DNA of 60,577 nt, the filler included, from Dugesia japonica (taxonomy: Eukaryota), in assembly GCA_001938525.1 (NCBI GenBank). It is 5 parts of 5 records of this genome, joined end to end, with 100 filler letters (N's around TTAATTAATTAA, not from the genome) between each part and the next. Parts side by side here need not be neighbours in the genome. Positions count along the whole stretch, not along the records: positions 20,755 to 31,493 come from MQRL01579954.1; 4 more parts are not named here. One strand, written 5' to 3'. Shown one piece after another: positions 1,974 to 39,800 of the stretch (positions are counted from its first letter, which is position 1; the number at the start of each line of letters is the position of its first letter). The notes beneath the pieces were generated by a model that ran no database searches, was not told the origin of the DNA, and worked only from the letters and a program-made list of their open reading frames with translations. A program made the position numbers and the translations under genes.

Positions 1974-4741
1974 ATTAGGTAGATAGTGGCGGACTGGACC
2001 AACACGTATCGAAACATAATCCTAATGCATTTAGTTGGCAATTTAAAAATGGCATCATATTAGGAAATATTAGGTTACTGTTTTTAAATTTCCCCTGTAT
2101 ATTTAGTTGGGAAAACATTTTGCACAGAAATTATGTCATTAGATTAATTTAATCGGTGAAATTTTATGTATTTAGTTCCAATCTATTTAGTTGGCAAATA
2201 TTTTTGCAAATAAATTATGTAATTTTTAATTGTGTTTTGAAAAGTTTGGCAAATTATTTTAAAATTTAGGTTTTTTCTGTTGTTTTCGGCTGTTGCCAGG
2301 ACTTGTAATAAATATTTCTTATATTCCAATTTTTATCTATTTCAATTCAATAATTTTTAATCTTTCCTTTTTTTCGGTGGTTGCCAAGTTTTAATTTTTT
2401 TGAATTTATTATTTAGTCTTTTTGTTCAATTTTTGGCGTGTCCAAGATTAAGTATTTTTAAAATATTTAAATTTTATTATTCTACGTCAATATTTATTAT
2501 TGACTTATCTGGCCGAAAACAACAGAAAAAGAAGGTGATATCCTTATCAAAACCCTTATCCAAAGAAAAATTAAAGTATTTACATTATTCAATTTTTTAT
2601 TTGGTTTGTGTTAATTAATATAATTTCATAAAATTAATTTGTTTGGTTATTACTATTTTATAGTTTGTAAAACAATTAAATCATATTTGGTAATTCAATA
2701 ACCTAAATTAAAATAAATAAATTCATTAACAAATAAAATAACTCAGATTATAGATAAGGGAATTAATTAAGTACCTACCGCCTATTGCGTTCAAATTAAC
2801 TTAACACACATCGTCAATCTTTAACCTTAATAAAAATAGTTAATTTCAAACTTTAATTTATAATAATTGAAATTTTTATTAAGCATTAGATAATTTGAAA
2901 GAATTTGAAATATTTTTTGAAAATAACTGAAATAATTGGTGAAATAAATAATTTTCAAATAATTATGAGAAAAATATCTAAAACATTAATTTAAAGTGTA
3001 AAATACAGTCGCTTTAGACTTTTTAAAATAATAAGTGAAATTTAAGCTTTTACAATTATAAAGATGAAAAAACTTTTACAATTTTTATTTTCAATTAGGA
3101 TATTATAATAAATAAGGATAATTGTATGAATGAATTAGTGGGTCATGAAACTTGAAAGTATTAGAAACCATAATTTTCATATATTCCTTTCATTGAATAA
3201 TGTTAGATTGCCGCGGGAATGGTATTCATATTGCACTTACAAGTTTCATGACCCACTAAATTCTCTATCTAACAATACTTGGATCATTAAATTTGGATGA
3301 AAATTATAAAAAATAATTTTTTATTTGTGTCGATTAAGTATGCTCGGGAATTTTGACCATGTTTTTTCAAGTTTGCACAGTCAAAATTAAGTTTAGCTAT
3401 TTTAGGTGATGGTTTTCTTGATCAGTGAAAAATTCTTTATAGAATAATGGTGGTTTCGTTACGATTTGAGAAGAAAATCGTTCAAAAATTCTCTGGTTTA
3501 TCTTATTTGTTCTCAGGTGCAGACAAGACTTGGTGATTTTTAACTAAGTCAGCCATGATCAGCAAAACAATCAATATCGAATAGATGGTTTGATGTTCAA
3601 ATTCGAATAACTCTTTCCAAAATTCATAATTTCTCGGGGACCCCAAAATGAAGTACTTGTTTTTTCAATGTAACGTTTTATCTATGAAGGTAAACGATCT
3701 TAGAAGATGTTTTTCTTAATCACAGTAACATTCTCTATCAAATAGATACTTTAATCTTTAAATTTGAGTTACTTTTTATTTTTTCTAAAAAAGTTACGAA
3801 ATCCGGGAGGACAGCTGAAAATCTTCGTTAGGAAGCATTTTTGCGGAGATGATAGTTTAACTTTATACAGTCACCCTTTCTTCCTGAGTAAAATAATACC
3901 AAATTTGAAACCATGCGAGTTATGTATGCAGAGAATATCGAGCTACAAAAAACAAAATTTGAGGGTTTTTCACCACAAAAATCCACTTATTTCATCCCTG
4001 ATAAACTTTTGCTATTTTAGGTTTATATATGTGGAATCAGCAAAACAATTCTCTATCTAATAGATATATTTTTACTTCATGAAAAGATGAGAAATAAATT
4101 TTTGGAAAGATTTTTATTTGTGATAAATAATTTCCATCGAATTCGGCATCGATTGATATAAAAATCACGAAAAAAATTTTCCAAAATTTTCAAAAATTTG
4201 TGAGGTTCCGAATTCACAATTCAGCTCAAACCTACCAGCCCGTCGAAAAATTTGACCAAATCACCAAAATATTACCCAAATTGAGCAGAACCGAGTAAAT
4301 ACCCGATCAAGCTTGAAAAAATTTGTTACCGCCCAAAAAGCATAAAAAATACTACAGCTTAAAAAGCCTGAAATAATTTTCCCAACTAAAAGCCTAAATT
4401 TGAAAATAATTTGCCAAACTTTTCAAAACAAAATTAAAAATTACATAATTTATGTGCAAAAAATATTTGCCAACTAAATACATTGGTAAAAAATTTAAAA
4501 CAGTAATCCTATTACATAAAATTTCACCGATTAAATTAATCTAATGACATAATTTCTGTGCAAAATTTTTTCCCAACTAAATACACAGGGGAAATTTAAA
4601 AACAGTAACCTAATATTTCCTAATATGATGCCATTTTTAAATTGCCAACTAAATGCATTAGGATTACGTTTCATTACATCACTAATCCTGCCGGTGGGGG
4701 ATTGAATGTGTGTTGGTCCAGTCCGCCACTATCTACCTACT
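1974..4741. mobile_element. Non-autonomous Polinton/Maverick derivative (2768 bp) with long TIRs and 6-bp TSD
   Basis: Left end ATTAGGTAGATAGTGGCGGACTGGACCAACAC (1974) is the inverse of the right end ...GTGTTGGTCCAGTCCGCCACTATCTACCTACT (4741). Inverted similarity covers about 1974-2275 vs 4390-4741. TGAAAT flanks both sides (1968-1973, 4742-4747). No coding remnant recognised inside. Confidence 0.88.
3136..3258. mobile_element. MITE-like palindromic insertion (123 bp)
   Basis: TAGTGGGTCATGAAACTTG (3136) ... CAAGTTTCATGACCCACTA (3258) is a perfect 19-bp inverted repeat with further imperfect pairing. The outer TA could be the TSD. Confidence 0.7.
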
Positions 4742-18649: not shown

Positions 18650-20511
18650 ATGGTCCAAATTTGGAAATTTAATTAATCCATACTTTAGTAGGTGGTGAAA
18701 GTCATATCCTCTCAAATTATGGAAGACTACTGGTAATTGATAGTTGATTCTTCTGCTTAAATGGCATTTATTACAGGTAGCTCCTATAAAATTGCATGTA
18801 ATATGATCTTGATCCCGAACTTGATTACTTAAACGCTTTTTACACAAATGACATATTTTACCATGTTTAAATTCCATTTCTTGGACTGGTGTCATAATCA
18901 GTTTCTTTTTTCCATCTTAAATATAATATGGNTATACTATATTATTACCGATTTCATCCACTGCCTTTAGGAAATCGTATAAACATTCATTTCCAACAAT
19001 CTGGCTGTATTTGACTTCATTAGTAAAATTATTTACCAAAAACAGTTTAGCTGAAACAGGTAAATGTTTCTGGAAATGTTTTTCATCACTTGAAATCAAC
19101 ATATATAACAAAAGGTGGGATTAAAGTTTTGGAGTAATCTTAAAACTCCAGATTCTTTTCTGTCAACATTTTGTATAATGTGGTGCCCGTCTGAATTTTC
19201 TCACAAACTGGCTCATGAGTCATGTAAGCCGTATAATCCCTAAATCCGTTAAGGCAATTCTTGCACTGGATTGATCGAATTCGAACACCATCCTTTTTAT
19301 ATATCTCTGTTCATCAATCTATTCAAATTCATTACTGTCGTGTAATGAAATTTGTTGGCATCTTCCAATAACAATAAATTGATTTTCTGTCCATCACATT
19401 TAGACCAATGTATAATGGCTAAATTCGAATGCTTCAGTATAAAGTCATCATCGTCATCCATTGATTGAGGGTTCCATGAAAAAACATTAAACTGATAAGC
19501 CCGAATTTTGCTTTTCAAATTTTGGTCAATTTTCGAGCTTCATTGACATGTCCCATTCATCGAATACAAGCCCGGACATGTACTCTTTACATTTTGTAGC
19601 TCGATATCTATGATTTTCCCCAACTTTATCCTTTTTGAGTACAGCTAGAATGCTGTATATGAAACACATATTGTCATTATTTTTTTTCTTTTTCAAATAT
19701 TTCTGTGTTGGAATAGAGTCTACTGATGTCTGATACCTTGGTGATTTAAACATTTATTTCCAATATGCGGCTCAGTATCCAACTGGATACAAGCTTGCTT
19801 CTTATAGCTATCTTTTCATTTAATTATTTTATTCCGTTTTTGAAAAACGAATCGCTCTATTAGATAATCTGCAAGTTTTTGTTTCATAATCTTTTTGAAA
19901 TTCTACATTAATCCCAAATTGGATCTTGGCAGTTTTTAATTCTTCAATAGTTTTAAATAACTGCTCAATCAAGGATTTCGGTACAGCGATTTCTTTCGTA
20001 TTTCACCTTGAAGCATTCATTTTCAATATCTGTTGACATCTATATAAATCATTTTCTATTATCACATCTTCATCGAGAGAGCCACCGATTTGTGCTTCTC
20101 CTTTATAAAAACTTATCTTAAAAACTTTGCATGACAATATATTTTCTATCCATTCCATCTCTGATTTTAAAATTATTCCAATCATCTTCAATTATCTGAG
20201 GCTTCACCTTCATTTCTTCATCTGGGATAACTATTACATCGTCTTTTCTTTTCTTCGATGNNNNNNNNNNNNNNNNNNNNNNNNNTATCATCCTTAATAA
20301 TTGGTTTTTATTTATTGTAAACTGCTCTAAGTGGTCTGCATGCAAGCTATAACAGTCTACATATTCACCTATTCCTATAGACCTATATGGTGGATATATG
20401 CAATACTTTTTCTCATATAAACACTGACCATAATATTTCTCCATAGTAATATGGCAGTCGTCTTTATGAGTCCGATTTTCGCAATAATGTTTGTACATTG
20501 TACAGCATTCT
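18650..20511 (-). pseudogene. Polinton protein-primed family B DNA polymerase (pPolB), N-terminal part and exonuclease region, decayed
   Basis: SIPT..KNNDNMCFIYSILA; INLLLLED..FHYTTVMNLNRLM; PPFVIYVDF (ExoI-like); KICHLCKK..VRDQDHITCNFIGATCNKCHL (endoVII-like); LPVVFHNLRGYDFH (ExoII). Confidence 0.85.
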
Positions 20512-20793: not shown

Positions 20794-21520
20794 AGTAGTG
20801 AGATAGTAGCGCATCAGAACACCTAGTCCCCCACGCCGGCAAGTGTTTAGAAAAACGTGTTTTTAAAAGTGTTCTGAAATTTGAGCATTTTGATTCGTTG
20901 ATAAAAATACATGGAAAATTTTTCGATTTTGGTTTGTCCAATTTTCGGCCGGGGAGTTTGAAAATTTTAATTTTCGGAATTTCATTTTTTGGCGAATTTT
21001 TATGGTATGACTTCAAATTTGGTATGGATAAACTTGTAATTAAATTCTGTATAAGAAAATAATTTTACTAATTTCAAAACATATTTGGTTCTTGCTACAA
21101 GGGTAGTAGCGAATCAGAACACTTTGACTTGCTTTATAAATTTCTCGGTAAATACATGTTGTATAGGTCTGAAAATGATAAAATTTGATTAAGAATAAAC
21201 TTCTAAACATATGTGGTATAGAGTTTGTAGTGTAAATATGCTTGGTTCAAAAGATAGAAAATTACCGGGTACCATGTCCCACCTTAGATAAAAGAAATTA
21301 TTTACTCTGTAAATACTTATGATAAGCAAACAAATTTAGTATTATTGAACTCAAAATGAAAAACTGAACATATTTCATATAAGGTTTGCTGTATGAAAAT
21401 GCTTCGTTCAAGAAATAATACATAACTATATAATTAATTATAAATATAAATAAATTAATAATAATTTTTATAGTATTTTTAAGCAATTCAACTCGAAATT
21501 AAAAAGCTCTATAAAAATAT
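20794..21520 (+). repeat. Polinton terminal module, family B
   Basis: AGTAGTGAGATAGTAGCGCATCAGAACAC start with an internal re-iteration GTAGTAGCGAATCAGAACAC near 21103. Homologous to 5674-6240 and to the inverse of 37965-39033. Confidence 0.7.
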
Positions 21521-22043
21521 AATTTCACTTTACTTAAAAATAAAGATATTATTAATATAATAAGATTTTTTTCAATAAAACGTTAATCTTTATTGAACAC
21601 ATTTGAGCTGGTTGATATTGTGTTGGTTTGTATTGATACACTAAAAATAAATGCATTAAGCTAATGAAATAATAATTAATAAAATACTACATGTTATTGC
21701 TTTGATCAAAGGTTTTATCATGAATCGTTAATTATTTACGTAAAATATCAGCCAAGTTAACTTCATTCTCTACTTTAACTGAATAATTAATATCAATATA
21801 CTTTACCATACTATCTATAATTTTATCAATATTCATCTTTATAAATTGAACAATTTGATTTTCGTTTATATTATTTAAAATCAATTAATCTTACATAGAA
21901 AAAAAATATTTTCATGACATCATATGGTTAAAGGGCATTTCAAAGTTAATTAATCACACATATTATATAATCTAAAGCATTACAAATCTTGCACACACAT
22001 AAATTGTTACTATATAAACCAAAAAATTTACAATATTTCATTA

Positions 22044-22655
22044 ATGACAATGCAAGAATCGAAAAATAGTGCAACAACCATTGGTTTCAAATCACAGAAG
22101 ACCTACTTTGACAAACCAATCACTTATTCGTTTCAAGTAACATGATCAAACGGCTATTTATGATATTCTATCAAAATATGACAATACCATGTCAATGAAA
22201 GATAGTGCTTTCATTGATTCAAAGAAAATCATAATCAACAAAGGCAGAATCATAGTGGATATACTAGGATAAAAAAACATTGGTAATGNCACAAAACCTA
22301 TTTGGGAATTAAAAAAGTTTGGAATACGCATGCAACAAGTTATCCTTACCAAGGAAAATGTGATGAATATTGTAATTGATTATGGAATGCCTCGGGATTA
22401 TTACCATTTTAAGATGAATTTCTTTCTAAAGCCGATTATTTATGCATTCCAAGTAAATTTGTAAATATTATTACTGTTATTATTACAATTTAGGATCCAG
22501 TTAAACTAAAAAGATATCCATTCAGCATGCAAATATTGGAAATCAGTTTAGAGGACAAGACAATAATCAACAATCTTTTATCAAGAATCGATACTATGTT
22601 GAAAATAGATGATGCACCATTAATAAATGATAAGGAATCAGATGAAAATAGCTAA
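22044..22655 (+). pseudogene. Polinton accessory gene of unknown function, two exons (intron 22453-22493)
   Basis: MTMQESKNSATTIGFKSQKTYFDKP..IWELKKFGIRMQQVILTKENVMNIVIDYGMPRDYYHFKMNFFLKPIIYAFQ, then a 41-nt gtaaat..ttag intron, then DPVKLKRYPFSMQILEISL..DKESDENS*. One frameshift and a premature stop. Confidence 0.55.
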
Positions 22656-22953
22656 ACGAGTGATAAAAGTACTTGATCAATGTAATATTCAAAGGATTAA
22701 AAAAAATATAACAATACATTTAGCCCTATTTGGAAGATAAAAACTGTTCAAGATTTTAATTAATAAATGTTTTAAACCATATTTCTTTATTTCTTTTCAT
22801 TAGTTATATACTACTTGGTTAAATTTCATTAATGGAATAAATAAAATACACACAATTCAAATTAACAAAATTTATTAAATATCACATTATTTGTAGTTTT
22901 CATACATTTGTATTGCACTAGTTTTGTATTTTCTCGATTAAACTGTTCAAATC

Positions 22954-23429
22954 TCACATTATATTATAAACTTGATTTTGACAATATAAATTCTTAAGAC
23001 AAAGTATCACAACTTTCTCACTAGCAAATAGATTAACACAGATATGATTGTATTTAGTAAGTCTCAATGCTGGAAATAATTCAGGTTCATACATACACTT
23101 GGTTATTCTTGCCAATGTATACAAATTAACTGTATAAACAATGTATACAAATTATATATTATTCTTGCCAATGTATACAAATTAACTGATTGATTCAAAT
23201 TGACTACAATAGTTAATGATTGTAACTGAATGTTTTTAATGTCATACTGTAAATGCTTTATTTCTATTGGTTTTCTGCATACCATGATTCTAAAGTTCCC
23301 TGATTTAAAGAAATTAATCGTATACTTTCCACTTTTATCGACTATTTGTGATGGTTTACTGATAGGAAATTTCATTTTACTGGTGATTTCTTGAGATACT
23401 TGTCCTTCATAATTAATATTAGCAATCAT
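22954..23429 (-). pseudogene. TATA-binding-protein (TBP)-like gene inside the Polinton, frameshifted by a 56-bp duplication
   Basis: Repeat 1: MIANINYEGQV..KYTINFFKSGNFRIMVCRK. Repeat 2 after repair: IQLQSLTIVVNLNQSVNLYTLARITKCMYEPELFPALRLTKYNHICVNLFASEKVVILCLK. Compare canonical TBP YEPELFPGLIYRM..IFVSGKVVLTGAK. Confidence 0.8.
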
Positions 23430-23516
23430 TAGTATTATTTAATAGCTTTCAATTATGGGCTTGTAAATAATTCGTTTAAACAATATAAACAAGGTTCTAA
23501 ATAATTAAATCCTAAA

Positions 23517-24139
23517 TTGAATAAGTTAAGAAATGATGCTATATATCAAATTGTTGATCCCAGTGGTAGTGGAAAAACACTGTTTGTATGTAAATTATTG
23601 AAATCCAATTTATTTAAATCAAAATTCAATAAAATTTACTGGCATAGAAGGGCAAACGAAGAGCATGGATTGATTCAATTAGAGTTTTCTAATATAAAAA
23701 TGACAGTTATAAATGGACTTGATGATAATTGGAGCAAGAGATTGAAACCAGGTGATGTAATTGTTGTTGATGATTTATATCAGGAAGCAGGTAAGGGCAA
23801 GGACTTTAACAAACAAATTTCAAGACATTGTAATGTGACTGTGATTTTCATTACTCAAAATCTTTTTTATCAAGGAGATGATCACAGAAACCGTAACTTA
23901 AATTTACAATACTTGATTTTATTTAAAAATCCAAGAGATAAAACAGTGGTTGATTTTCTAGCAAAGCAGGTTAATCCTAATAATAGGAAATTTTTATGGA
24001 TTCATTCAAGGATGCAACAGTAAACCCACATGGGTGTTTATTTCTAGATTTTACACAACAATGTCCAAATAAACTTAGATTACGATATGATATTTTNAAT
24101 CAAAGTGGAATTACAGTATATAAACAATTGAACAATTAA
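23517..24139 (+). pseudogene. Polinton A32/FtsK-like DNA packaging ATPase
   Basis: Walker A PSGSGKT, Walker B VIVVDDL, SRHCNVTVIFITQNLF, LILFKNPRD. After a frameshift near 23995: DATVNPHGCLFLDFTQQCPNKLRLRYDI. Confidence 0.92.
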
Positions 24140-24460
24140 AGTAATTATTTAATTATAAAATATCAGAATTTTAAAAAGTTTTAGTTGATCAGGTAAATGA
24201 TGATTTGAAAAACGAAAATACTTCAAAAATGAAAGGTAAAAAATTAACTGTAAAGAACAAGAAATAAACAACGAAGACTTCAATAAAGAAGAAGACAAAG
24301 AAAAGCATACAAAGAGGAAGCATATAACAAAGAAACAGGTAACGAAACAATGGAGCGAGTTCAAAAAACTATCAAAAAGATTGTGAAAGAAAATTTCAAA
24401 TGGTAATGGAAAATAGGTCAAGATATAAACAATCTGACTGTTTGTATTTAAATAAACATT

Positions 24461-24791
24461 ATGAAATTTAAACAAAGTCTTCCGTTTTTAATATATTGCT
24501 AAAGGTTCCAAAAGAGTAGACAAGAAAATTGTTACAGTTATTTCCAACATTTGTCATAAATGATTTGCTAGAGATAATTGTGAATATTGTTCGTGGTAAT
24601 TTAATTATCAGTAAAAGAAAGACAAGGACTACAACGTCATAAAAGGTCATTGCTTTCAAAGATACAAAGAATACAAAAATACAAAGAATAGGAAATTAAT
24701 GAGAAAAAATATATATAAACAAAAAGAAGGATTCCTTGCTGCTTTATTGCCAATCGCATTAGCAGCCTTAGGACTAGTACATTTTACATAA
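24461..24791 (+). pseudogene. Small basic Polinton virion (core/membrane-lytic-like) protein
   Basis: LLEIIVNIVRGNL..K/R-rich stretch..KQKEGFLAALLPIALAALG. This resembles the QxGGFLxxLL amphipathic C-terminus of small Polinton proteins found between ATPase and integrase. Confidence 0.6.
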
Positions 24792-24852
24792 ACAATGGGT
24801 AACTTACAAACATTATCAAGAATTTATTTCAAATTTATATCAAATTGATGTA

Positions 24853-25885
24853 ATGGACAAAGTCGAACCAATATGGACAGACCCAAAACATCCAGCAAGG
24901 TTCAAAGAAGTGGAAAAACTATGTAAAGCAACACACAATTTGAAAGGCGAGACAAAAAAGGGGTTATCAAACCAGTTAGCGTACAGTCTGAACAAACTAA
25001 TATTGAAAAGATTCCCAACAAGACCGTATAAAACCTTTGATATTGATGATTTATGGTAAATGGATTTTATGGAAATGATACCTTATTCGAAAATTAATAA
25101 AGGATACAAGTATATTTTGACACATATTGACGTATTCAGTAGATTTGCAGGAGTTGTACCGATAAAATCAAAATCTACTAATGAGATGGAAGCTGCACTG
25201 AAAACAATTTTCAAAGAGGAGCCTCCTGATAATTTGCAAACTGATTTGGGAAAACAATTTTATAATTCAAAAGTCAAGAATATTATTAATCATCTCAAGA
25301 TTAATCATTATTCTGTATTTTCACAATACAAAGCAGCATATATTGAATGAATTAATCAAACATTGAGAGATGCATTGAAAAACTACTTTATATATACTGG
25401 TAATAAAACTTGTATACAAGTTTTATCGAAAGTAATTGACAGTTATAATCATACAAGTCATAGAGGATTAAATTGAGCAAGAACTGTTGATGTATCATTT
25501 GATAATTCAATGAAATTATGGGTTTTGAGACAACAACCAAAAGTAATAANNNNNNNNNNNNNNNNNNNNNNNNNNNNNNNNNNNNNNNNNNNNNNNNNNN
25601 NNNNNNNNNNNNNNNNNNNNNNNNNNNNNNNNNNNNNNNNNNNNNNNNNNNNNNNNNNNNNNNNNNNNNNNNNNNNNNNNNATGTATGTGATTAAAGATC
25701 ATGAAGAAAATCTTATTGTTGGAAAATTCTATGAACAAGAATTACAAGTTATTCCTCAACCAAAAGTATTTAGAATAGAAAAGATTATTAGATCAAAGGG
25801 AATTGGAAAGTATAAACAATTCTATGTAAACTAGCATGGATATGAAAAACTAAGTTGAATATCAACATCTCAAGTAGAAAATTAA
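24853..25885 (+). pseudogene. Polinton rve (c-) integrase with C-terminal chromo-like domain
   Basis: DDLW*MDF, YKYILTHIDVFSRF, LQTDLGKQF, KAAYIE*INQTL, SYNHTSHRGL, GKFYEQELQ, FRIEKIIRS..YVN*HGY. Confidence 0.93.
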
Positions 25886-25902
25886 ACAAAGAAGAAAGAA
25901 AA

Positions 25903-26114
25903 ATGAGCAAAACAAATAATTTCTATACACGATTACCGAGTATTAGTTGTCCACGGATTCATCCTGATAATAAAGCAAGTAGATTTATTGTTGCACTTGA
26001 AAATTTTATTTAATTGAATGAACAATGGGAAATTGCCTTGATGGACTTTACCTTTATATATTCAACCTTTCAATTATATACTAAATCATACATCAAATAT
26101 GAAATCACAAAAAT
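25903..26114 (+). pseudogene. Polinton minor capsid (penton) protein, N-terminal fragment
   Basis: MSKTNNFYTRLPSISCPRIHPDNKASRFIVALENFI*LNEQWEIALMDF fits the FYxxLPSxS..PDN..SxF..L..WEVAL pattern. Confidence 0.8.
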
Positions 26115-26786
26115 GTGCAAATCAGTAGAATCGGTTTAGAATCTGTAACTGAAAAACCAAGTTTTGTATTGCTTGATGCCAAATTGATGGTTACAAAAGT
26201 TCAAATTGAATCATCTGTACTAACCGATCATCAAATGGGACTTGCTAAGCAAAATGATGTTTATCCAATAAGAACCAAGGAAATTCTAGTTTATGTAATC
26301 AGTAAAGATAGTACAACGTTTTATAAGGAGCAAATCTTTAGGAATCGTCTATTACCAATTTTTTGTTGGTAACATTTCAAAGCAGAGATCGATATAATGA
26401 ACACTTTAAAACATCAAGCTCGAATTTTGATCATTTCAATGTCAAATCCATAACTCTTTCAAAAAACAGCAATTATCGAGAATCATATGTTCAGGATTTT
26501 GAAAATGATAATTATAGCACATCAATCAGTAGTTAGAAATATGGGATATCTAAACAAGAATATGAATTGTAGAATAACACTTGAGGAGTTTAAAAACGAA
26601 TATTCATTCTTTACCTTTGTACTTGCTCCAGATTTTGATATTAATCAGAGTCAATTGACCCAACGTGGGAATAAGAGATTGAATGTTAAATTTGGAACTG
26701 TTTTGATTACACCAGCATATGTAATAATCTACGGAGTATTTCAAAATGAAATCACAAATACATCAGACAGATCAATACTAATGTAA
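26115..26786 (+). pseudogene. Polinton double-jelly-roll major capsid protein, C-terminal half
   Basis: DAKLMVTKVQIESSVL..YPIRTKE..NFDHFNVKSITL..ITLEEFKNEYSFFTFVLAPD..GNKRLNVKFGTVL..VIIYGVFQNEI..DRSI. Confidence 0.85.
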
Positions 26787-27441: not shown

Positions 27442-29118
27442 AACATTCCAAATTATACAACCATTCCGCAAGTGCGAGTATCAATGGTGACTGTCATAGT
27501 ATCATGATAAATACTATTGCCAACGGTTTTGTGGAAAAAATTATTTTGTGTGTGCTAATTGTAAGGTATTGGATTTAGATGACTACTTAAGTTTTTATAA
27601 GACGCATAAGAAACACTTATCTTGTTTTAGTAAAAGTAAAAAGAATATACTAAAATCAATATTAGATTGGCAGATGGATAGTAAATTTTATGAAGCATCA
27701 GTAAATAAGAAAATTAAGATAGAAGTAAAAACAGTTAAGGATAAACCAGTTTAAATAATTGTTATTGAAGATGATGTTGAAGAAATAACAATCAAGGATA
27801 AGCCTATTGAAACGATTGTTATTGGAGGGGGTATTGAAGAAATAATAATCAAGGATGAACCAGTTGAAAACATTGAATGTTGTTGAAGAAATCATAAATT
27901 TGAAACTAGAAGAAGAAACGTCAAATATTTTACAAGAAGAAGATGCAATCCATATTAAATCAGATGATTGGAACAGTACTTAATGAACTTGATGAAGAAG
28001 ATATCGTGTTAAATAAGATCCTCGATATGGAAGAGAAAAATAATCAAATTGGTATATCGATAATGAATAGTGATGACGATATCATGTTACAACAATTTAT
28101 TGATGCAGAAAAAACGGAAAATAATAATTAAGTTGGTGAATCAGCAAATATAACTGTGGATGATGGAGTAATTATAGAATCGGATTTGTATCGTGGTCAT
28201 AGGATTCTTAAAATAGATGTTTCAAGATGGAATTGTCATGAAATAATGTTACCAGAGGCTATAGTTAACAAATTATTTCAGACAATAGAAGAAAAGAAGC
28301 AAGTTAAAATACAATTTAGGGTGTATTTTGAGTTAAAAAGTACAACAACAACTGTTGATGAAGAAGAAGAGGAGTTTAAAACCTGTAGAATACCAAATAA
28401 AGCCATTGCCTTAACTGATAACTTTTTTGAAGATGGGAATAACCAATTGAATGAGAAAATAACAATAAGAAGCGAACTAGCCTCCAGTTGGATGTTAAAC
28501 AGAATACAGAAAATTAATTTTAAGATCACAAAGGTTGCAGATATTTGTAGACTTTTTGGAAAAAGTTATATTCCAACACCGCCAGATTTAAAAAGGAAGG
28601 AGGCAATTGTAAACATCAAAAACGACGATAATTACTGATTTATTTACAATATTCTTGCTATCACCAAAAAAGATCAAATTAGAGGCAGGAATAAAAACCG
28701 CGTAACATTATATGAAAAATACATGTGGGACCTTGTATTTGATGAAGAGGATATGCTGATGAAACTGATTGATATATCAAAGTTTGAGAAGAATAATCCT
28801 GGACTATCCATCAATGTCCTATTATGGAATCAAGAATCACTGGAGGATGAAGAAGATGAAGTAATCATGAAATATCCGAATTTGGGCATAATACACAGGT
28901 CAAAAGTGATAGATGGAGAAAAAATATATCTTTTATTACTGGGAAATAACAACAGATTTCATTACACAGCAGTAATAAATCTAAATCGCCTAATGAACAG
29001 GAATAATAAAAATGAAAGTCTTCGAATTCGATCAACTTTGTGTCCTAGCTGTCTCAATTGGCTCAAAAATGCTGTAGCATATGAAAAGCAGGAGCCAATT
29101 TGCAAAAATATTTTTTAG
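27442..29118 (+). pseudogene. Second pPolB gene, N-terminal part, truncated at 29118; probable spliced leader exons at 26801-27051
   Basis: Colinear with 18650-20511: VIIESDLYRGHRILKIDVSRW, SSWMLNRI, GKSYIPTPPDLKRKEAIVNIKNDDNY*FIYNILA, ISKFEKNNPGLSINV, FHYTAVINLNRLM, CPSCLN. Confidence 0.85.
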
Positions 29119-34035: not shown

Positions 34036-35479
34036 ATTTTATGCAAATATAGTTAGATCTTGATACGATTAACCATCATAAATCTAATTTATTTTAACAT
34101 TATACTATTCAGGTCCATTAAACACTTTCAAACCCATACAATCAGGAAACCAATTGTTGAAAATTATAAGTAAAGTATACCTCTGAACAATAGGATATTA
34201 TTCATTAAAACATAAAAATGAAGAAAATATTTCTATAAATTACTAAAGGTGTTTGTTTTCAATTTTTAGAGAAAAGAATAAATAGAGAAAGCCGAGGTGC
34301 ACGCAGAGGGGACAGGCAAATAGTGATGATGAATGATAAATGCCTATATTATTATTTTATAAGTTAGGGGAAATAGTACAGAGTTTCCGTAAAGTATTGG
34401 AATATTATTTAGAATTTCAGAGAAGTGTTGGAAACTTATAAAAGAATTTCCGAGATGTATTAAAACTTTATACAGAATTTCAGAGAAGTGTTGAAAAGTT
34501 ATTCAAAATTTCCAAGCAGTCGTGAAAGTTTATCCAAAATTTCACAGAAGTCATGAAAATATATCCAAAATTTCCAAGTAGTGTGTGAAAATTAATAAAG
34601 ATTTTACTGAAGTCATAAATTGTTATAACTTAATAAAATATTTCATACTCTATTTAATAATGTCCAAGGATTCCCATTGTAATCATACATTTGTCTTTTT
34701 TTAGATTAATAAAAAATAATTGTTACACATATTTGTTTGATGGGTATAAATCATCAATTCTTGACAATAGTGTACTTAAAACTTAAATGTTATCTAGTCA
34801 TATTTCAAATGGATTTTAAATTTTTTTTTAATTAAAATTATTAATTATTTATATTAACATTTTAAATATAATTTGTTTAAATTCATTGTTTGCAACAAAT
34901 GCAATCTTTTTAAATTTCCAAAACTTATTATTTGCGTATATAAGTCAAATCTTTTAGACATTGTTCCATATTACAAAGGAAAATATGTCGCCACTTGTAT
35001 ACATTCTATCTAGACCAGTACAAATCATTAAACCCGATACATCCATTAACTAAATACAACCAATAAACCTAGTACATTCAATGAACCCGATACATTCATT
35101 AAACTTATACATTCGATTCATTTACGTATTTGACTTACATGCTATTGACTCAATGCTATCATTCATCTTAATCAACTCGTTCAAGTTAAGCAATACATTC
35201 ACCTTATCCATTGAATATGCTTAATTTGTCTTACTGGACATAAATCAATAAGCAAAAGTCACTATTTTCATTAAAATAAACACTAAGCTGATTCTGATGT
35301 TTACTGATGGTTAACATTACTCTATAATAATAATTCATATCATCTTACAACTAATGATACAGGTAATCAAATTACATAGTTATATATAAAACCTTTTCAA
35401 GGTAAATACCGTAAATTTATCAATGAACACAGCAAAGTCTGTATGTGTCTGTATATGCAAAGTTAATAGATAGAGTAAG

Positions 35480-35760
35480 CAAATAAGTAAAGTAACCTAA
35501 TATGATAGAGTGAAACCAATGGAATACAGTAAAACCGATGAATAGAGTAAGCATGTTAGTACGGTAAGCCAATGTGATAAAGTAAACACTAAGTAATAAA
35601 GTAAACTAATGTGTAACAGTGAAACTAATGGTCCTAGTAAACCACATGTGTTACAGTAAAACTCAAGTAATGCACTAAACTAATGTGTAACAATGAAACT
35701 CATGGTCATAGTAAAGTCGATGGGTTATAGATGAAACCAATGTAATATAGTAAAGTCAAT
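35480..35760. repeat. Degenerate minisatellite of about 21 bp (ACAGTAAA-CCAATG-like)
   Basis: Periodic AGTAAA/AGTGAAAC..AATG units. Confidence 0.7.
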
Positions 35761-36619
35761 GAATATCACACATAGTGCCTGATCGAATCAAATATTTCTA
35801 GTAAATTATTCAACTTATTACTAATTTATCAATTGAATATAAATCAAGTCCAATCATCTATACACTGATTTCATTAAACCATGAATATATTGTAGTTGTC
35901 CACAAGCACATTATTACCACTTGTATACTAATTATTACCAGTTATGTATGAATTACGAACAGTGATATGTAATTTACTGACACCTATGTACAAATTGTAG
36001 TCTTCTATGAGCAAATTATCACCATCTATGTGTAGAATATAGCAAACTTTGTACAAATTATTAAACGCTGTGTGTAAATTATAACTAATATGAATAAATT
36101 ATGGCCATATATAAGAAAATCGTAACCAACTATTGTAGATTGAGACATTAGTTTGGACTTTTTCAAGTCTAAATATTATTTGAATAACTTTATTTTAAAA
36201 CGTTTCTATAGATATGCACAAAATATATACTAAGTCCATAAGCAAATCCATTAAAATGTATAGACCTGTAATTAAAAAATAGACTAATCTTATTAGGATT
36301 TGTTAAGTTTCCATTAATTGGTATAATATTTTTAAGTTTAATAAATTTTAAAAATTTTTCTAAAGTTATTTAAAATTAATTAATTATACTAAAACCATTT
36401 TTATTTCATCCATTTCTCTAACGTATATCGAATATAAAAGATTTTTTAGATTTATAGTGTTTTATAGTGTTCAGCAGTTTTATTTACACAGTAAGCTAAT
36501 AGTTATACTAAAATAGTAGAAAACAATGTGTTAATATAGACAAATTTTATTAAAACGTAGTACATTTCCATTAATTTCTTTAATTTCTCTAAGTTTTATA
36601 AATTTTAGAGTTTAGCAAT

Positions 36620-37400
36620 GGATACAGAAAGCCAGTAAATACACTATATAAGTGGATAGAGTAGACAAATGGGTATAGAAAACCGATATGATACAGTAAA
36701 ACCCAAAGGTTTTAGTAAATAAATGGATAGAGGAAGCCTATGTGATACAGTAAGCCCATGTGTTTTCAATAATGTCAATGTGACATAGTAAAACCCTTGA
36801 ATTTCAGTAAACCAGTGTGTCACAGTAAGGCTCACGTGCTACATTAAAGCATGTGTTGCAGTAAATATAATGTGTTACAATAAAACCCATGTGACACAGT
36901 GAGCCCATGTGTTTCAATAGAGCTAATGTGACACAGTAAACACATTGTATTTCAGTAAACTACAATGACACAGTAATTCCATGTGCTACAGTAAAACCCA
37001 TATAATAGAGTAAGTACATGGGTACAGGAAACCGATCTGATACAATTAAACCCACGAGTTTCAGTAAATCAATGTATAAGGTCAACATATTAGTAAAGTA
37101 AGCTAATGGAATAGAATAAAGCTCATGTGTTATAGTAAATAAGTGTAAATAGTAAGGCCAATGTGTTTCAATAAAGCTAATATGACATAGTAAACACATT
37201 TCAGTAAACTACAATGACACAGTGAAGCCAATATATTACAGTAAAGCCTATGTGCTACGGTAAAACCAATGGGATACAGTAAACCCAAGTGAAATAATAA
37301 AGTCTATGTGATACAGTAAACAGATAGTTAGAGTAAGCAAATGAGTAAAGTAAGACAGTATGTATAGTAAAGTAGTAGACATTGTAAACCAATTAACACC
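36620..37400. repeat. Degenerate minisatellite of about 21 bp, same family
   Basis: Dozens of (C)AGTAAA.CC.ATGTG.(T)A units with higher-order duplication (about 36880-36990 vs 37130-37260). Confidence 0.8.
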
Positions 37401-37964
37401 ACACATAGATAGTATTTTGTCAAAGTATATGCTGAAATCAGTCAATTCAAGTAAGTGATTTAATTTATTACAATATTTTAATTTAAATTTAGTCTATTAA
37501 TCTAATCTAACCTAATTATGTTTAGAAAAGTATGTACTATTAAGAAAAATTATGTGAAATTAATAAGTCTTGTAATTTAAATTTATGTTTTTATTTTGTA
37601 AATTTATAAAAATTTTGAAAATTAAAATTTTACATCTGTTACCATAGCAATATTTTAATAATTTAAATTTTTTATCAATGTAAATATTATTATTTTAGTT
37701 TTTTCAGTTTTTCAATGGAAATAGTTTGTAAAGATTTTCAATGCTAATTTTTAAAAGTAACTCAAATTTATATTATAAAATCATTAAAACTCGACATTTA
37801 CTGGAAAAATCATGAATTTCAAATAAAATGTAAAATTTTGAAATTTAATGAAAATGAATTAAAATTAACACATGAAAAAGAATAAAAATTAACACGTGAA
37901 AATGAAATAAAATTAACACATGAAAAATAAATTAAAATTAACACATGAAATAAAATTATTAGAA

Positions 37965-39033
37965 TGAAGCATTTTTATACAGCAAACCTTGTATACAAAA
38001 TGTTCAGTTTTTAATTCTAAGTTTAATGGTCTAAAAATATTTTAAAATTTATTATTATTTTAATTATAATTATAATTTATAATTAATTATATAATTATAT
38101 ATTATTTTGAGAAGCATACATATTTGTACAACAAACCCTGTTTGAAATATGTTCAGGTTTTTATTCTGAGTTTAAAAATACCAAATTTGTTTGACTATCC
38201 TGAGTATTTTCCAGAAAAGATAATTTTCTATCCAAGGTGGGTCATGACAACTAGCAATTTTCTATCTTTTAAACTAAGCATATTCATACAAACTATCCTA
38301 TATGAAATATGTTCAAAATTTGATTCTAAATCAAATGCTATTATCTTGACTATACGATACGTTTTGATCGTGAAATTCATATATTAAAGTCAACTGTTCC
38401 CGGTCGCTAGTACCTTTATCTTGGAAAATAAAATTATTCATATAGCAAAGCATACATGAAAAATTTTCAGTTTTTGATTTTGAGTTCAACAATATCAAAA
38501 GTGTTATTTTATCATTAGTTTTTCTTGAAAAAATAATTTTTCATTCTCGGTGAGTCATGGCACCCGTTAATTTTCTATCTTTTAAACTAAAAATATTTTT
38601 GCAACAAATCCTATACAAAATATGTTCAGAATTATATTTTGAATCGAATTGTACCATTTACAAAGCATGCCGATAGATTTTGGGTGAGAAATTTAAAAAA
38701 CAAGGTCAACTGTTCCCGTGCGCTAGTATCTTTTCTGAGAGAACCAAGCATATTTACATAGCAAACCCTATACAAAAAATGTTCACCTTTTAATTTTAAG
38801 AAGATCGACACCAAATTCAAAAGCACACGATGAAAATTAACCGAAAATTTTTTTCTTCAATTCGAAATTTTTACCTTTCCGAACTAAAATTCGACCGTTC
38901 CAACTCGATTTCGAAAAACATTTTCACGTATTTGTAACGACTAATCAAAATGCTACAAAACCAAAACAGTTAAAACAACCAAAACACCGAAACAGTTGGC
39001 GAGGGTGAAGGCCCTGACTGTTTTCGTGCTCTA
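37965..39033 (-). repeat. Terminal module family B, inverted, with internal re-iterations of about 300 bp
   Basis: Inverse matches to 20794-21520, e.g. TAAATATGCTTGGTTC, AAAAGATAGAAAATTA..GGGT..CATG, ATAATTAATTATATAATTATAT. Confidence 0.7.
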
Positions 39034-39406
39034 GTATTTTAGGTTAATGACTTTGTTTAATAATTATAAGTTAATGATTTTATTTTAATTGGATTATAAT
39101 TTCACTTCCATGACAGTGATTATCCATGTTTTATCAAAAATAAATTTTGTTTTGATTAGTCTTTTCATTTGTTTCTTTTATATTATTTTTAATATTGTTT
39201 GAGAAGCATCTAATCTTAATATAGCTCGGGCGAAAAATCATTTCAAAACTTGAAAATTTAAACAAAATAAGGTTTCCCATCGATTTTCTATGAAAAATCC
39301 ATAAAAATCATATAATTTAAATAAAAATCTCAAAAATCGGTAAATTTAAACAAATCATAAAAATCAATTAATTTTAACAAAAAATGTTTTAATTATTAAA
39401 ACAAAA

Positions 39407-39800
39407 AATATTAAGTCTGCGCGTAGAATTTAAATATGAAGTTTAGCAGATGACCTTGAAACATTTTGACTAATCAGAGCACAGGATACTGTATCACTTT
39501 GACCTTGAAGCACATCAACCAATCAGGACGCAGTATACTATATTACTTTGACCTTGAAACATTTCGAACAATCAGAACACAGGATACTATATCACTTTGA
39601 CCTTGAAAATATTTCGACCAATCAGAATAGAGTATACTGTATCAGTTTGACCTTGAAAATTCAACCTTCAAATTTTCCACCAATAAGAATTGATTATATT
39701 AAATCACGGACCAATCAGAATCAAGTATACTGTATCAGTGACCTTGAAAAAATTGACCTTCAGGGGGAGGGGTGATACAGTGCGCTACTATCTACCTACT
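39407..39800 (-). repeat. Polinton terminal repeat, family C, with tandem CCAATCAG/TGACCTTGA units of about 49 bp
   Basis: Ends GCGCTACTATCTACCTACT. TGACCTTGA occurs at 39451, 39500, 39549, 39598, 39648 and 39739. Confidence 0.85.

Follow-up and report, generated by a model that had tools for sequence, protein, structure and literature searches.

A Polinton-borne family of minimal TBP-like proteins and a candidate late-promoter word upstream of virion-module genes

Here we describe a family of TATA-binding protein (TBP)-like proteins of about 150 amino acids (mini-TBPs) carried by Polintons, and we propose that they act as private readers of late promoters marked by the word YATAAAC(A/G), at which they would recruit host TFIIB and RNA polymerase II. 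We put the probability of this reading at roughly 60%; it is predicted from protein anatomy and from correlation, and its groundwork is the fold, Polinton setting, selection regime, and kept and changed residues of the family, together with the position, strand, and gene-class bias of the motif, all documented below. The point of departure was a single gene copy in a stretch of 60,577 nucleotides, filler included, of the Dugesia japonica assembly GCA_001938525.1 (here, the window). Viral TBPs are already known from nucleocytoviruses and herpesviruses; the contribution here lies in the split of the motif between gene classes, the control Polintons, and a second and third type of Polinton TBP.

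A TBP-like pseudogene in an old Polinton

The TBP-like gene lies on the minus strand at 22918-23429, in two frame pieces, and it faces a decayed Polinton's packaging ATPase in a head-to-head arrangement. Its 5' piece (23160..23429), which by translation encodes a shortened N-terminal lobe and the start of the C-terminal lobe, is 88% identical to P0001, an intact natural relative of 151 amino acids, and 45% identical to the protein of locus L007; its 3' piece (22918..23132, with homology to about 22921) encodes the C-terminal lobe with the TFIIB stirrup. Both pieces contain the TBP motifs cited in the original prediction. The C-terminal piece on its own exceeds the Pfam TBP cut-off (24.4 bits versus 22.9; E 2.6e-5), and its PDB matches are TBPs without exception; the N-terminal piece on its own matched no Pfam family and gave a weak match to an archaeal TBP (E 0.72). 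P0001 is collinear with the repaired gene, which agrees with the earlier description of a gene lacking introns and an N-terminal extension.

The two pieces are separated by a 56-bp frame-shifting insertion. The 28-mer noted at 23105 and 23161 is exact and has no third site in the window, and it extends to a 30-nt direct repeat (23103-23132 and 23159-23188; exact match, offset 56) that spans 23103..23188. A third piece of the same local sequence, 16 nt long, sits at 23139 between the two 30-nt copies; the insertion therefore resembles the scar of a templated repair event more than a clean tandem duplication. The gene had been read as one frame of about 139 amino acids with two TBP-like repeats; the motifs of those repeats are indeed present in the pieces, but that length reflects an in-frame stop at 22954-22956, beyond which 11 further homologous codons follow. 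Five of the 12 differences between the window copy and P0001 fall in columns that are at least 90% conserved, compared with 0 to 2 of 33 to 49 differences for seven intact relatives, which indicates decay. With its insertion, early stop, and changes at conserved sites, the window copy is a pseudogene.

The window is AT-rich (∼25% GC), gapped, and eukaryote-like, and the plus strand beyond the TBP-like gene holds a broken virion module. This comprises a packaging ATPase in two frames (23505..24136; 62% identity to the L014 ATPase, with homology from 23523), a broken small basic core-protein-like ORF (24462..24788; homologous to ORFs that follow the ATPase in L022 and L014, with a weak Adeno_PX match at E 0.057), a retroviral-type integrase (24778..25876; Pfam rve E 3e-10, 51% to L022), and, at 25846..26786, the 5' fragment of a penton-like gene and the 3' half of the major capsid gene, found by tblastn with L016 and L022 proteins and separated by an internal deletion. 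The Polinton hallmarks of ATPase, retroviral-type integrase, and major capsid protein are all present, and all are broken. Two decayed tandem copies of a gp2.5-like single-stranded DNA-binding protein (SSB) gene lie at 21954..22652 on the plus strand, convergent with the TBP-like gene (the second copy by profile, E 1e-4; the first by eye).

Protein-primed DNA polymerase B (pPolB) is represented in the window by two N-terminal fragments only, one at 27910..29115 on the plus strand (E 4e-6 to the pPolB of L027) and one, inverted, at 18677..20191 on the minus strand (E 5e-14 to the same protein; inverted repeat I22, 73%). The relatives L027 and L016 have pPolB together with an adenovirus-type protease, for which no match was found in the window. 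A search of the window for terminal inverted repeats or a target-site duplication gave no clear pair bounding the element, and the copy is an old, internally deleted Polinton. The position of the two pPolB fragments, about 73% alike, on both sides could reflect two elements or an old duplication. Elsewhere in the window, degenerate tandem arrays with units of 31, 49, ∼37/74, and ∼155 nt occupy 34380-39739, one of them with an inverted relative at 21170-21445, and a 165-nt inverted repeat pair (97%), 2.3 kb apart at 2006-4677, resembles the ends of a non-autonomous DNA transposon.

Range, selection, fold, and residues of the intact family

Searches with the 5' piece recovered 7 relatives with 57 to 88% identity, and a profile of these retrieved 1254 proteins (threshold E<=0.001); most of the 120 best are 144 to 165 amino acids long. 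The family amounts to 244 clusters at 50% identity (E<=1e-10), with a tail that includes some archaeal TBPs. We kept 80 metagenome loci, 27 of which hold family members (L006-L031 and L034); an ATPase, integrase, penton, capsid, or protease gene is reached in 10 of these 27 and in all 6 of those longer than 4 kb, so that intact copies do stand beside virion or integrase genes of Polintons. The near-complete element L027 carries genes for pPolB, PLA2, a TBP-like protein, ATPase, integrase-chromo, and capsid, and L086, which was retrieved by its ATPase alone, also carries a mini-TBP gene. Gene order is variable, the TBP-like gene of relatives lying either upstream of a codirectional ATPase or behind a capsid-protease block; the head-to-head arrangement singled out by the original prediction exists in the window, with a start-to-start gap of about 90 bp, but is peculiar to it and not conserved in relatives. 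IMG/VR scans with the N-terminal piece, ATPase, capsid, and integrase returned no family member or close Polinton, a scan of the same resource with the family alignment returned distant TBPs only, and no phage match was found. Some Polinton contigs (L086-L092, G001-G005) had been binned into bacterial genomes of the GTDB collection, which gives those bins apparent TBP genes; this is likely contamination.

The intact relatives are under purifying selection: pN was lower than pS in all 231 pairs among 22 intact genes, and dN/dS was 0.13 to 0.28 in the closest unsaturated pairs. Phylogenetic analyses of 66 or 128 of the family and TBP rows, which have long branches and do not include animal TBP, TRF2, or herpesvirus and poxvirus proteins, placed the family, 29 of 66 rows, on its own side of a branch with 100/99 support. 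The rows nearest to it are the full-length TBP of another Polinton (L059) and an unplaced sequence, followed by L088, L097, and L102. In an AU test, again with long branches, the tree joining the family to eukaryotic TBPs was not rejected (p 0.21), and an ancient capture from a eukaryote is therefore possible. The expectation that the gene is long resident rather than a recently captured host pseudogene agrees with the many intact, selected relatives in Polintons and with their separate clade, in a tree from which animal TBP and TRF2 are absent; features of a recent host retrocopy were not found.

The predicted model of P0001 has a pLDDT of 96, and when it was compared with the PDB, TBPs filled ranks 1 to 44 (Foldseek E 3e-9), with a Z score of 13.0, an rmsd of 2.6, and 148 of 151 residues aligned. 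This intact member is thus predicted to have the two-lobed TBP saddle fold, as the original reading of the gene implied, and a search of the ESM Atlas with P0001 returned TBP clusters only. The best TM-score to the mini-TBP model in BFVD (0.80) belongs to entry A0A0C5K842, a viral protein of 197 amino acids.

To describe individual residues, we used yeast TBP numbering, assigned through a canonical TBP collinear with yeast TBP, across 116 family rows. The intercalating phenylalanines F116 (100%), F190 (99%), and F207 (100%) are kept, while the F99 position is never phenylalanine (proline or lysine depending on the alignment), leaving three of the four canonical phenylalanines. The TFIIB stirrup is kept as well, with E186 in 96% of rows (aspartate in the rest) and E188 in 100%; the L086 protein, with asparagine at 186, is the one exception seen to the stirrup glutamate. 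N69 and Q158 are also kept, and P191 is kept in 89%. By comparison, the DNA face is fixed at new residues at eight positions: V71N (96%), V122R (98%), T124M (100%), N159S (97%), V161T (88%), I194R (98%), V203C (100%), and L205N (100%). Part of helix H1 and most of helix H2 of the N-terminal lobe are missing, with 8 or 9 of the 20 H2 columns filled in P0001, L016, and L024; deeper-branching members keep the H2 helix but not its basic residues.

Published work gives these positions a possible meaning. The main text of Ravarani et al. (2020; PMC7221094) presents the E186/E188 stirrup as a TFIIB signature and the basic patch of N-lobe H2 as a binding site for the regulators TFIIA, TAF1, Mot1, and Brf. 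In the accessible part of the report on yeast TBPm3 (PMC1636458), changes at 194, 203, and 205 confer a new specificity, and R194, C203, and N205 of the family occupy these three positions. Table 1 of PMC12529657 likewise gives polar residues for ORF24 of KSHV (the Kaposi sarcoma herpesvirus) at several of the same DNA contacts. Judged from these residues, the rebuilt polar face points to DNA binding with altered specificity rather than to loss of binding.

YATAAACA before virion-module genes

Upstream of 100 ORFs of the family loci, ATAAAC/ATAAACA ranked first among the enriched words, with ATAAACA occurring 32 times in the sense and once in the antisense orientation against 1.7 expected; L019, a near-copy of L016, was left out of the motif counts. 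The base preceding ATAAAC was T at 29, C at 15, G at 2, and A at none of 46 sites. YATAAAC precedes 27 of 36 virion-module genes compared with 2 of 25 TBP/SSB genes, in classes assigned by hand after the motif had been seen and with genes that are non-independent within and between related loci. The link to virion genes that the original prediction had proposed gains support from this motif, of which that prediction made no mention. Exceptions to the split are the 9 of 36 virion-module genes without the motif, and all three DEDD-exonuclease genes and one SSB gene with it. A canonical TATA was present in only 7 of the 25 TBP/SSB genes (p 0.2 versus virion genes), and several TBP-like and SSB genes combine a canonical TATA box with a TCATT initiator-like word. 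Another candidate before TBP-like genes, TTGTTTTA, was dropped; it often stood behind an AATAAA/ATTAAA signal or equaled the main motif on the other strand, and it was not ranked among the enriched words.

The distance from motif to ATG was 32 to 46 nt at 26 of 43 sites, the same range in which the canonical TATA boxes of these elements lie. Many sites are embedded in coding sequence: 17 of 38 lie within the upstream ORF, 13 of these at least 36 nt before its end, and 10 of 38 overlap the upstream TAA stop; among YK(Q/H) triplets close to the ends of proteins, 7 of 8 are written with the codons of the motif. The virion module of the window itself has 6 sense and no antisense occurrences against 0.75 expected, all of them candidate sites by motif match on the plus strand. 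One lies about 35 nt before the ATPase, as a candidate late promoter (23484..23491), another in the 3' end of the ATPase, at conserved YKQ codons in the alignment and before the next small gene (24119..24126), and a third 37 nt ahead of a small virion-module ORF's ATG (24424..24431); two precede the integrase (24714-24721 and 24787-24794), and one precedes the penton-like fragment (25811..25818).

Comparisons with other genomes suggest that the word goes with the mini-TBP. In cellular and giant-virus loci (455 ORFs), the motif occurred 21 times in sense and 22 times in antisense orientation, and in six ATPase-fetched Polinton contigs (partial) where this TBP type was not seen, it preceded 2 of 29 genes. 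L086, which has the mini-TBP type, carries it before 3 of 5 genes. A second Polinton lineage encodes full-length, near-canonical TBPs of 183 to 188 amino acids with four phenylalanines and H2 (L088:11568-12122, L102:2229-2777, L097:1418-1981, and L098, the last from G002), and its promoters are instead enriched for TATAAAAG-type words; ATAAAAG precedes 9 of 47 of its genes against 2.1 expected, with the duplicate contigs L105 (identical to L087) and L106 (identical to L092) counted once each. Within the family, the first base of the motif was C at 11 of 17 sites in the branch that keeps H2 and T at 23 of 29 sites in the other branch.

A proposed early-to-late switch, its rivals, and known parallels

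We propose that the TBP-like and SSB genes form an early class transcribed via host TBP, and that the mini-TBP would then bend YATAAACA with its three remaining phenylalanines and its polar face. The kept E186/E188 stirrup would dock host TFIIB and so deliver RNA polymerase II to the genes for packaging, integrase, and capsid; a host partner is proposed because neither TFIIB nor polymerase genes were seen in the elements, and no TFIIB family member was found among 38 scanned ORFs or in four bins, the contigs being partial. Loss of the basic N-lobe helix may shield the protein from Mot1/BTAF1, TAF1, and TFIIA/Brf-type binding. The outcome would be an early-to-late switch operated by one protein of 150 amino acids.

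Several observations count against such a promoter reader. The match between TBP type and motif comes from one or two lineage contrasts that are independent, with partial control contigs, and TATAAACA is one mismatch from the TATA consensus. Work on TATA variants attributed to Patikoglou in 1999 reportedly described a Hoogsteen pair at TATAAAC. Going by the title of PDB entry 1qn3, wild-type TBP has been crystallized on a C(-25) variant, and on account of this crystal and the single mismatch, host TBP may itself read YATAAACA. Further, P191, which is said to permit only T at the first position, is kept in 89% of rows, yet a third of the sites begin with C. The virion-module genes without the motif, the exonuclease and SSB genes with it, the scarcity of canonical boxes among the supposed early genes, and the sites that overlap an upstream TAA stop weigh against it as well.

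In a different account, which we consider unlikely, the protein is a spare, regulator-proof TBP for all promoters of the element, or for times when host TBP is scarce or silenced, and YATAAACA is a weak TATA box that host TFIID also reads, with timing set in some other way. The motif indeed departs from the TATA consensus at one or two bases and lies at canonical-box distance from the ATG, type II Polinton TBPs are near-canonical and paired with canonical boxes, and the 1qn3 title fits as well; what this account leaves unexplained are the new, mostly polar residues at which eight DNA-face positions are fixed and the confinement of C at position 7 to one gene class (27/36 versus 2/25). More doubtful still is a decoy role, in which the protein sequesters host TFIIB or sits on AT-rich promoters of the host to damp host transcription, the motif then being read by another factor such as a host forkhead protein or an unrecognized protein of the element. 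The forkhead consensus is RYAAAYA, with which ATAAACA is compatible, and a kept stirrup in an otherwise diverged protein would suit such a role, as would the other possible DNA binders that the elements encode (KilA-N, C2H2 zinc fingers). However, forkhead variants are not enriched (GTAAACA 3; ATAAATA 5 sense versus 4 antisense), the motif is strand-specific at 32 to 1 and stands at a TATA-like distance, it is nearly absent from Polintons in which the mini-TBP type was not seen, and neither the three phenylalanines nor a new, invariant DNA face would be needed in a decoy. The original prediction had offered a viral transcription-initiation factor or a TBP decoy; the decoy is the less favored of the two.

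The motif might also serve the upstream gene as a poly(A) or termination signal and have no connection to the TBP-like protein, whose role would then lie elsewhere in replication or chromatin. We regard this as very improbable: the motif does contain ATAAA, and the overlap of 10 of 38 sites with an upstream TAA stop fits, but the preceding base is never A among 46 sites, the opposite of AATAAA, and sites lie deep within upstream ORFs (13 of them at least 36 nt before the end), at a tight distance to the downstream ATG and a loose one to the upstream end. The ATPase site in the window, moreover, has no same-strand gene within 800 bp. Least credible of all, to the point that we give it almost no weight, is that a retrocopy of host TBP was captured once and has since decayed. 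The missing intron, the broken window copy, and the eukaryote-type YEPELFP stirrup would agree with it, and the AU result (p 0.21) leaves an ancient eukaryotic origin standing; against it are hundreds of intact, selected relatives in Polintons, a clade of their own at 100/99, and an identity of only ∼20% to cellular TBP. As a recent event, it is already refuted by the family data.

Canonical eukaryotic TBP binds TATAWAWR and seeds the pre-initiation complex. Compared with cellular TBP (PF00352; 7o4i, 5fur, 1mp9), the mini-TBP shares the two-lobed saddle over 148 of 151 residues and F116, F190, P191, F207, N69, Q158, E186, and E188, but is about 30 residues shorter, has a cut H1 and a largely vanished H2 basic patch, lacks F99, and has other residues fixed at eight DNA-face positions. 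The closest functional likeness may be with the vTBPs of beta- and gammaherpesviruses (KSHV ORF24, EBV BcRF1, HCMV UL87), which, as presented in the accessible text of PMC12529657, also belong to viruses without a polymerase of their own and are TBP mimics with kept phenylalanines, a polar DNA face, and a non-canonical TATA-like word before structural genes. Those proteins are large, have several domains, and include a Pol II-binding N-terminal one, whereas the mini-TBP is a bare core of 150 amino acids with a TFIIB stirrup, as its mostly 144- to 165-residue relatives (among the best 120 of 1254 matches) illustrate; if it reads promoters, it would be a minimal parallel of ORF24 and not a member of that family. 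Nucleocytovirus TBP-like proteins, which are among the BFVD matches, have two lobes and no eukaryotic N-lobe regulator signature according to the main text of PMC7221094. The same text gives ∼40% conservation of the stirrup glutamate, in contrast to 96 to 100% in the mini-TBP, and describes a viral TFIIB almost always alongside, in contrast to none detected with the mini-TBP on partial contigs; the word "Polinton" does not occur in that main text.

Adintoviruses and MELD viruses (Starrett et al. 2021; PMC8502044) belong to the same element class, and a figure legend of that article marks "TBP" in MELD viruses. The accessible text names no element for it and offers neither a family range nor a residue analysis nor a promoter motif, and about 4 million characters of the supplement contained no match to TBP. 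The original remark that TBP homologues are not known as standard Polinton genes is qualified by this legend, the only such mention we found. No literature describing the mini-TBP family, its residues, or its motif was found in a search with limited coverage of subscription journals.

For the timing of Polinton capsid genes, and for whether Polintons still make particles, a dedicated TBP with a matching word would offer a concrete, testable switch; the window copy is merely a fossil of that system. YATAAACA could then serve as a sequence marker for Polinton late genes. By keeping a docking site for host TFIIB, the mini-TBP departs from the reported pairing of viral TBP with viral TFIIB, and as a natural TBP of 150 amino acids with likely altered specificity, it may serve as a probe of how TBP reads DNA and as a candidate orthogonal promoter-factor pair. 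We hold more tentatively, at slightly less than even odds, that many animal-type Polintons run a herpesvirus-like early/late program through this single protein and its private word, borrowing host TFIIB and Pol II while evading the regulators of TBP. This would be the smallest such system, and the switch by which an integrated transposon becomes a virus that makes particles; Polinton lineages would represent stages of it, from a near-canonical TBP paired with TATAAAAG to a rebuilt one that has a word of its own.

The gp2.5-like SSB gene often flanks the TBP-like gene (in the window and in L008, L009, L011, L013, L014, L021, L024, L025, and L031). A relative of the window SSB is predicted by its model to fold like the T7 gp2.5 and Enc34 SSBs (Z 7.1 to 7.3), for which reason a role for this neighbor as a TBP partner or as a stand-in for TFIIB or TFIIA was dropped; an ESM Atlas search with the neighbor protein found nothing. 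An acidic tail is present in some copies, and in several the first exon seems to be spliced. L059:2165-2728 and L060 encode a third Polinton TBP, again of full length, and its N122, N124, and S205 are the residues listed for KSHV ORF24 at those contacts in Table 1 of PMC12529657. The L059 gene adjoins one that, by eye, resembles PC4-type DNA-binding proteins.
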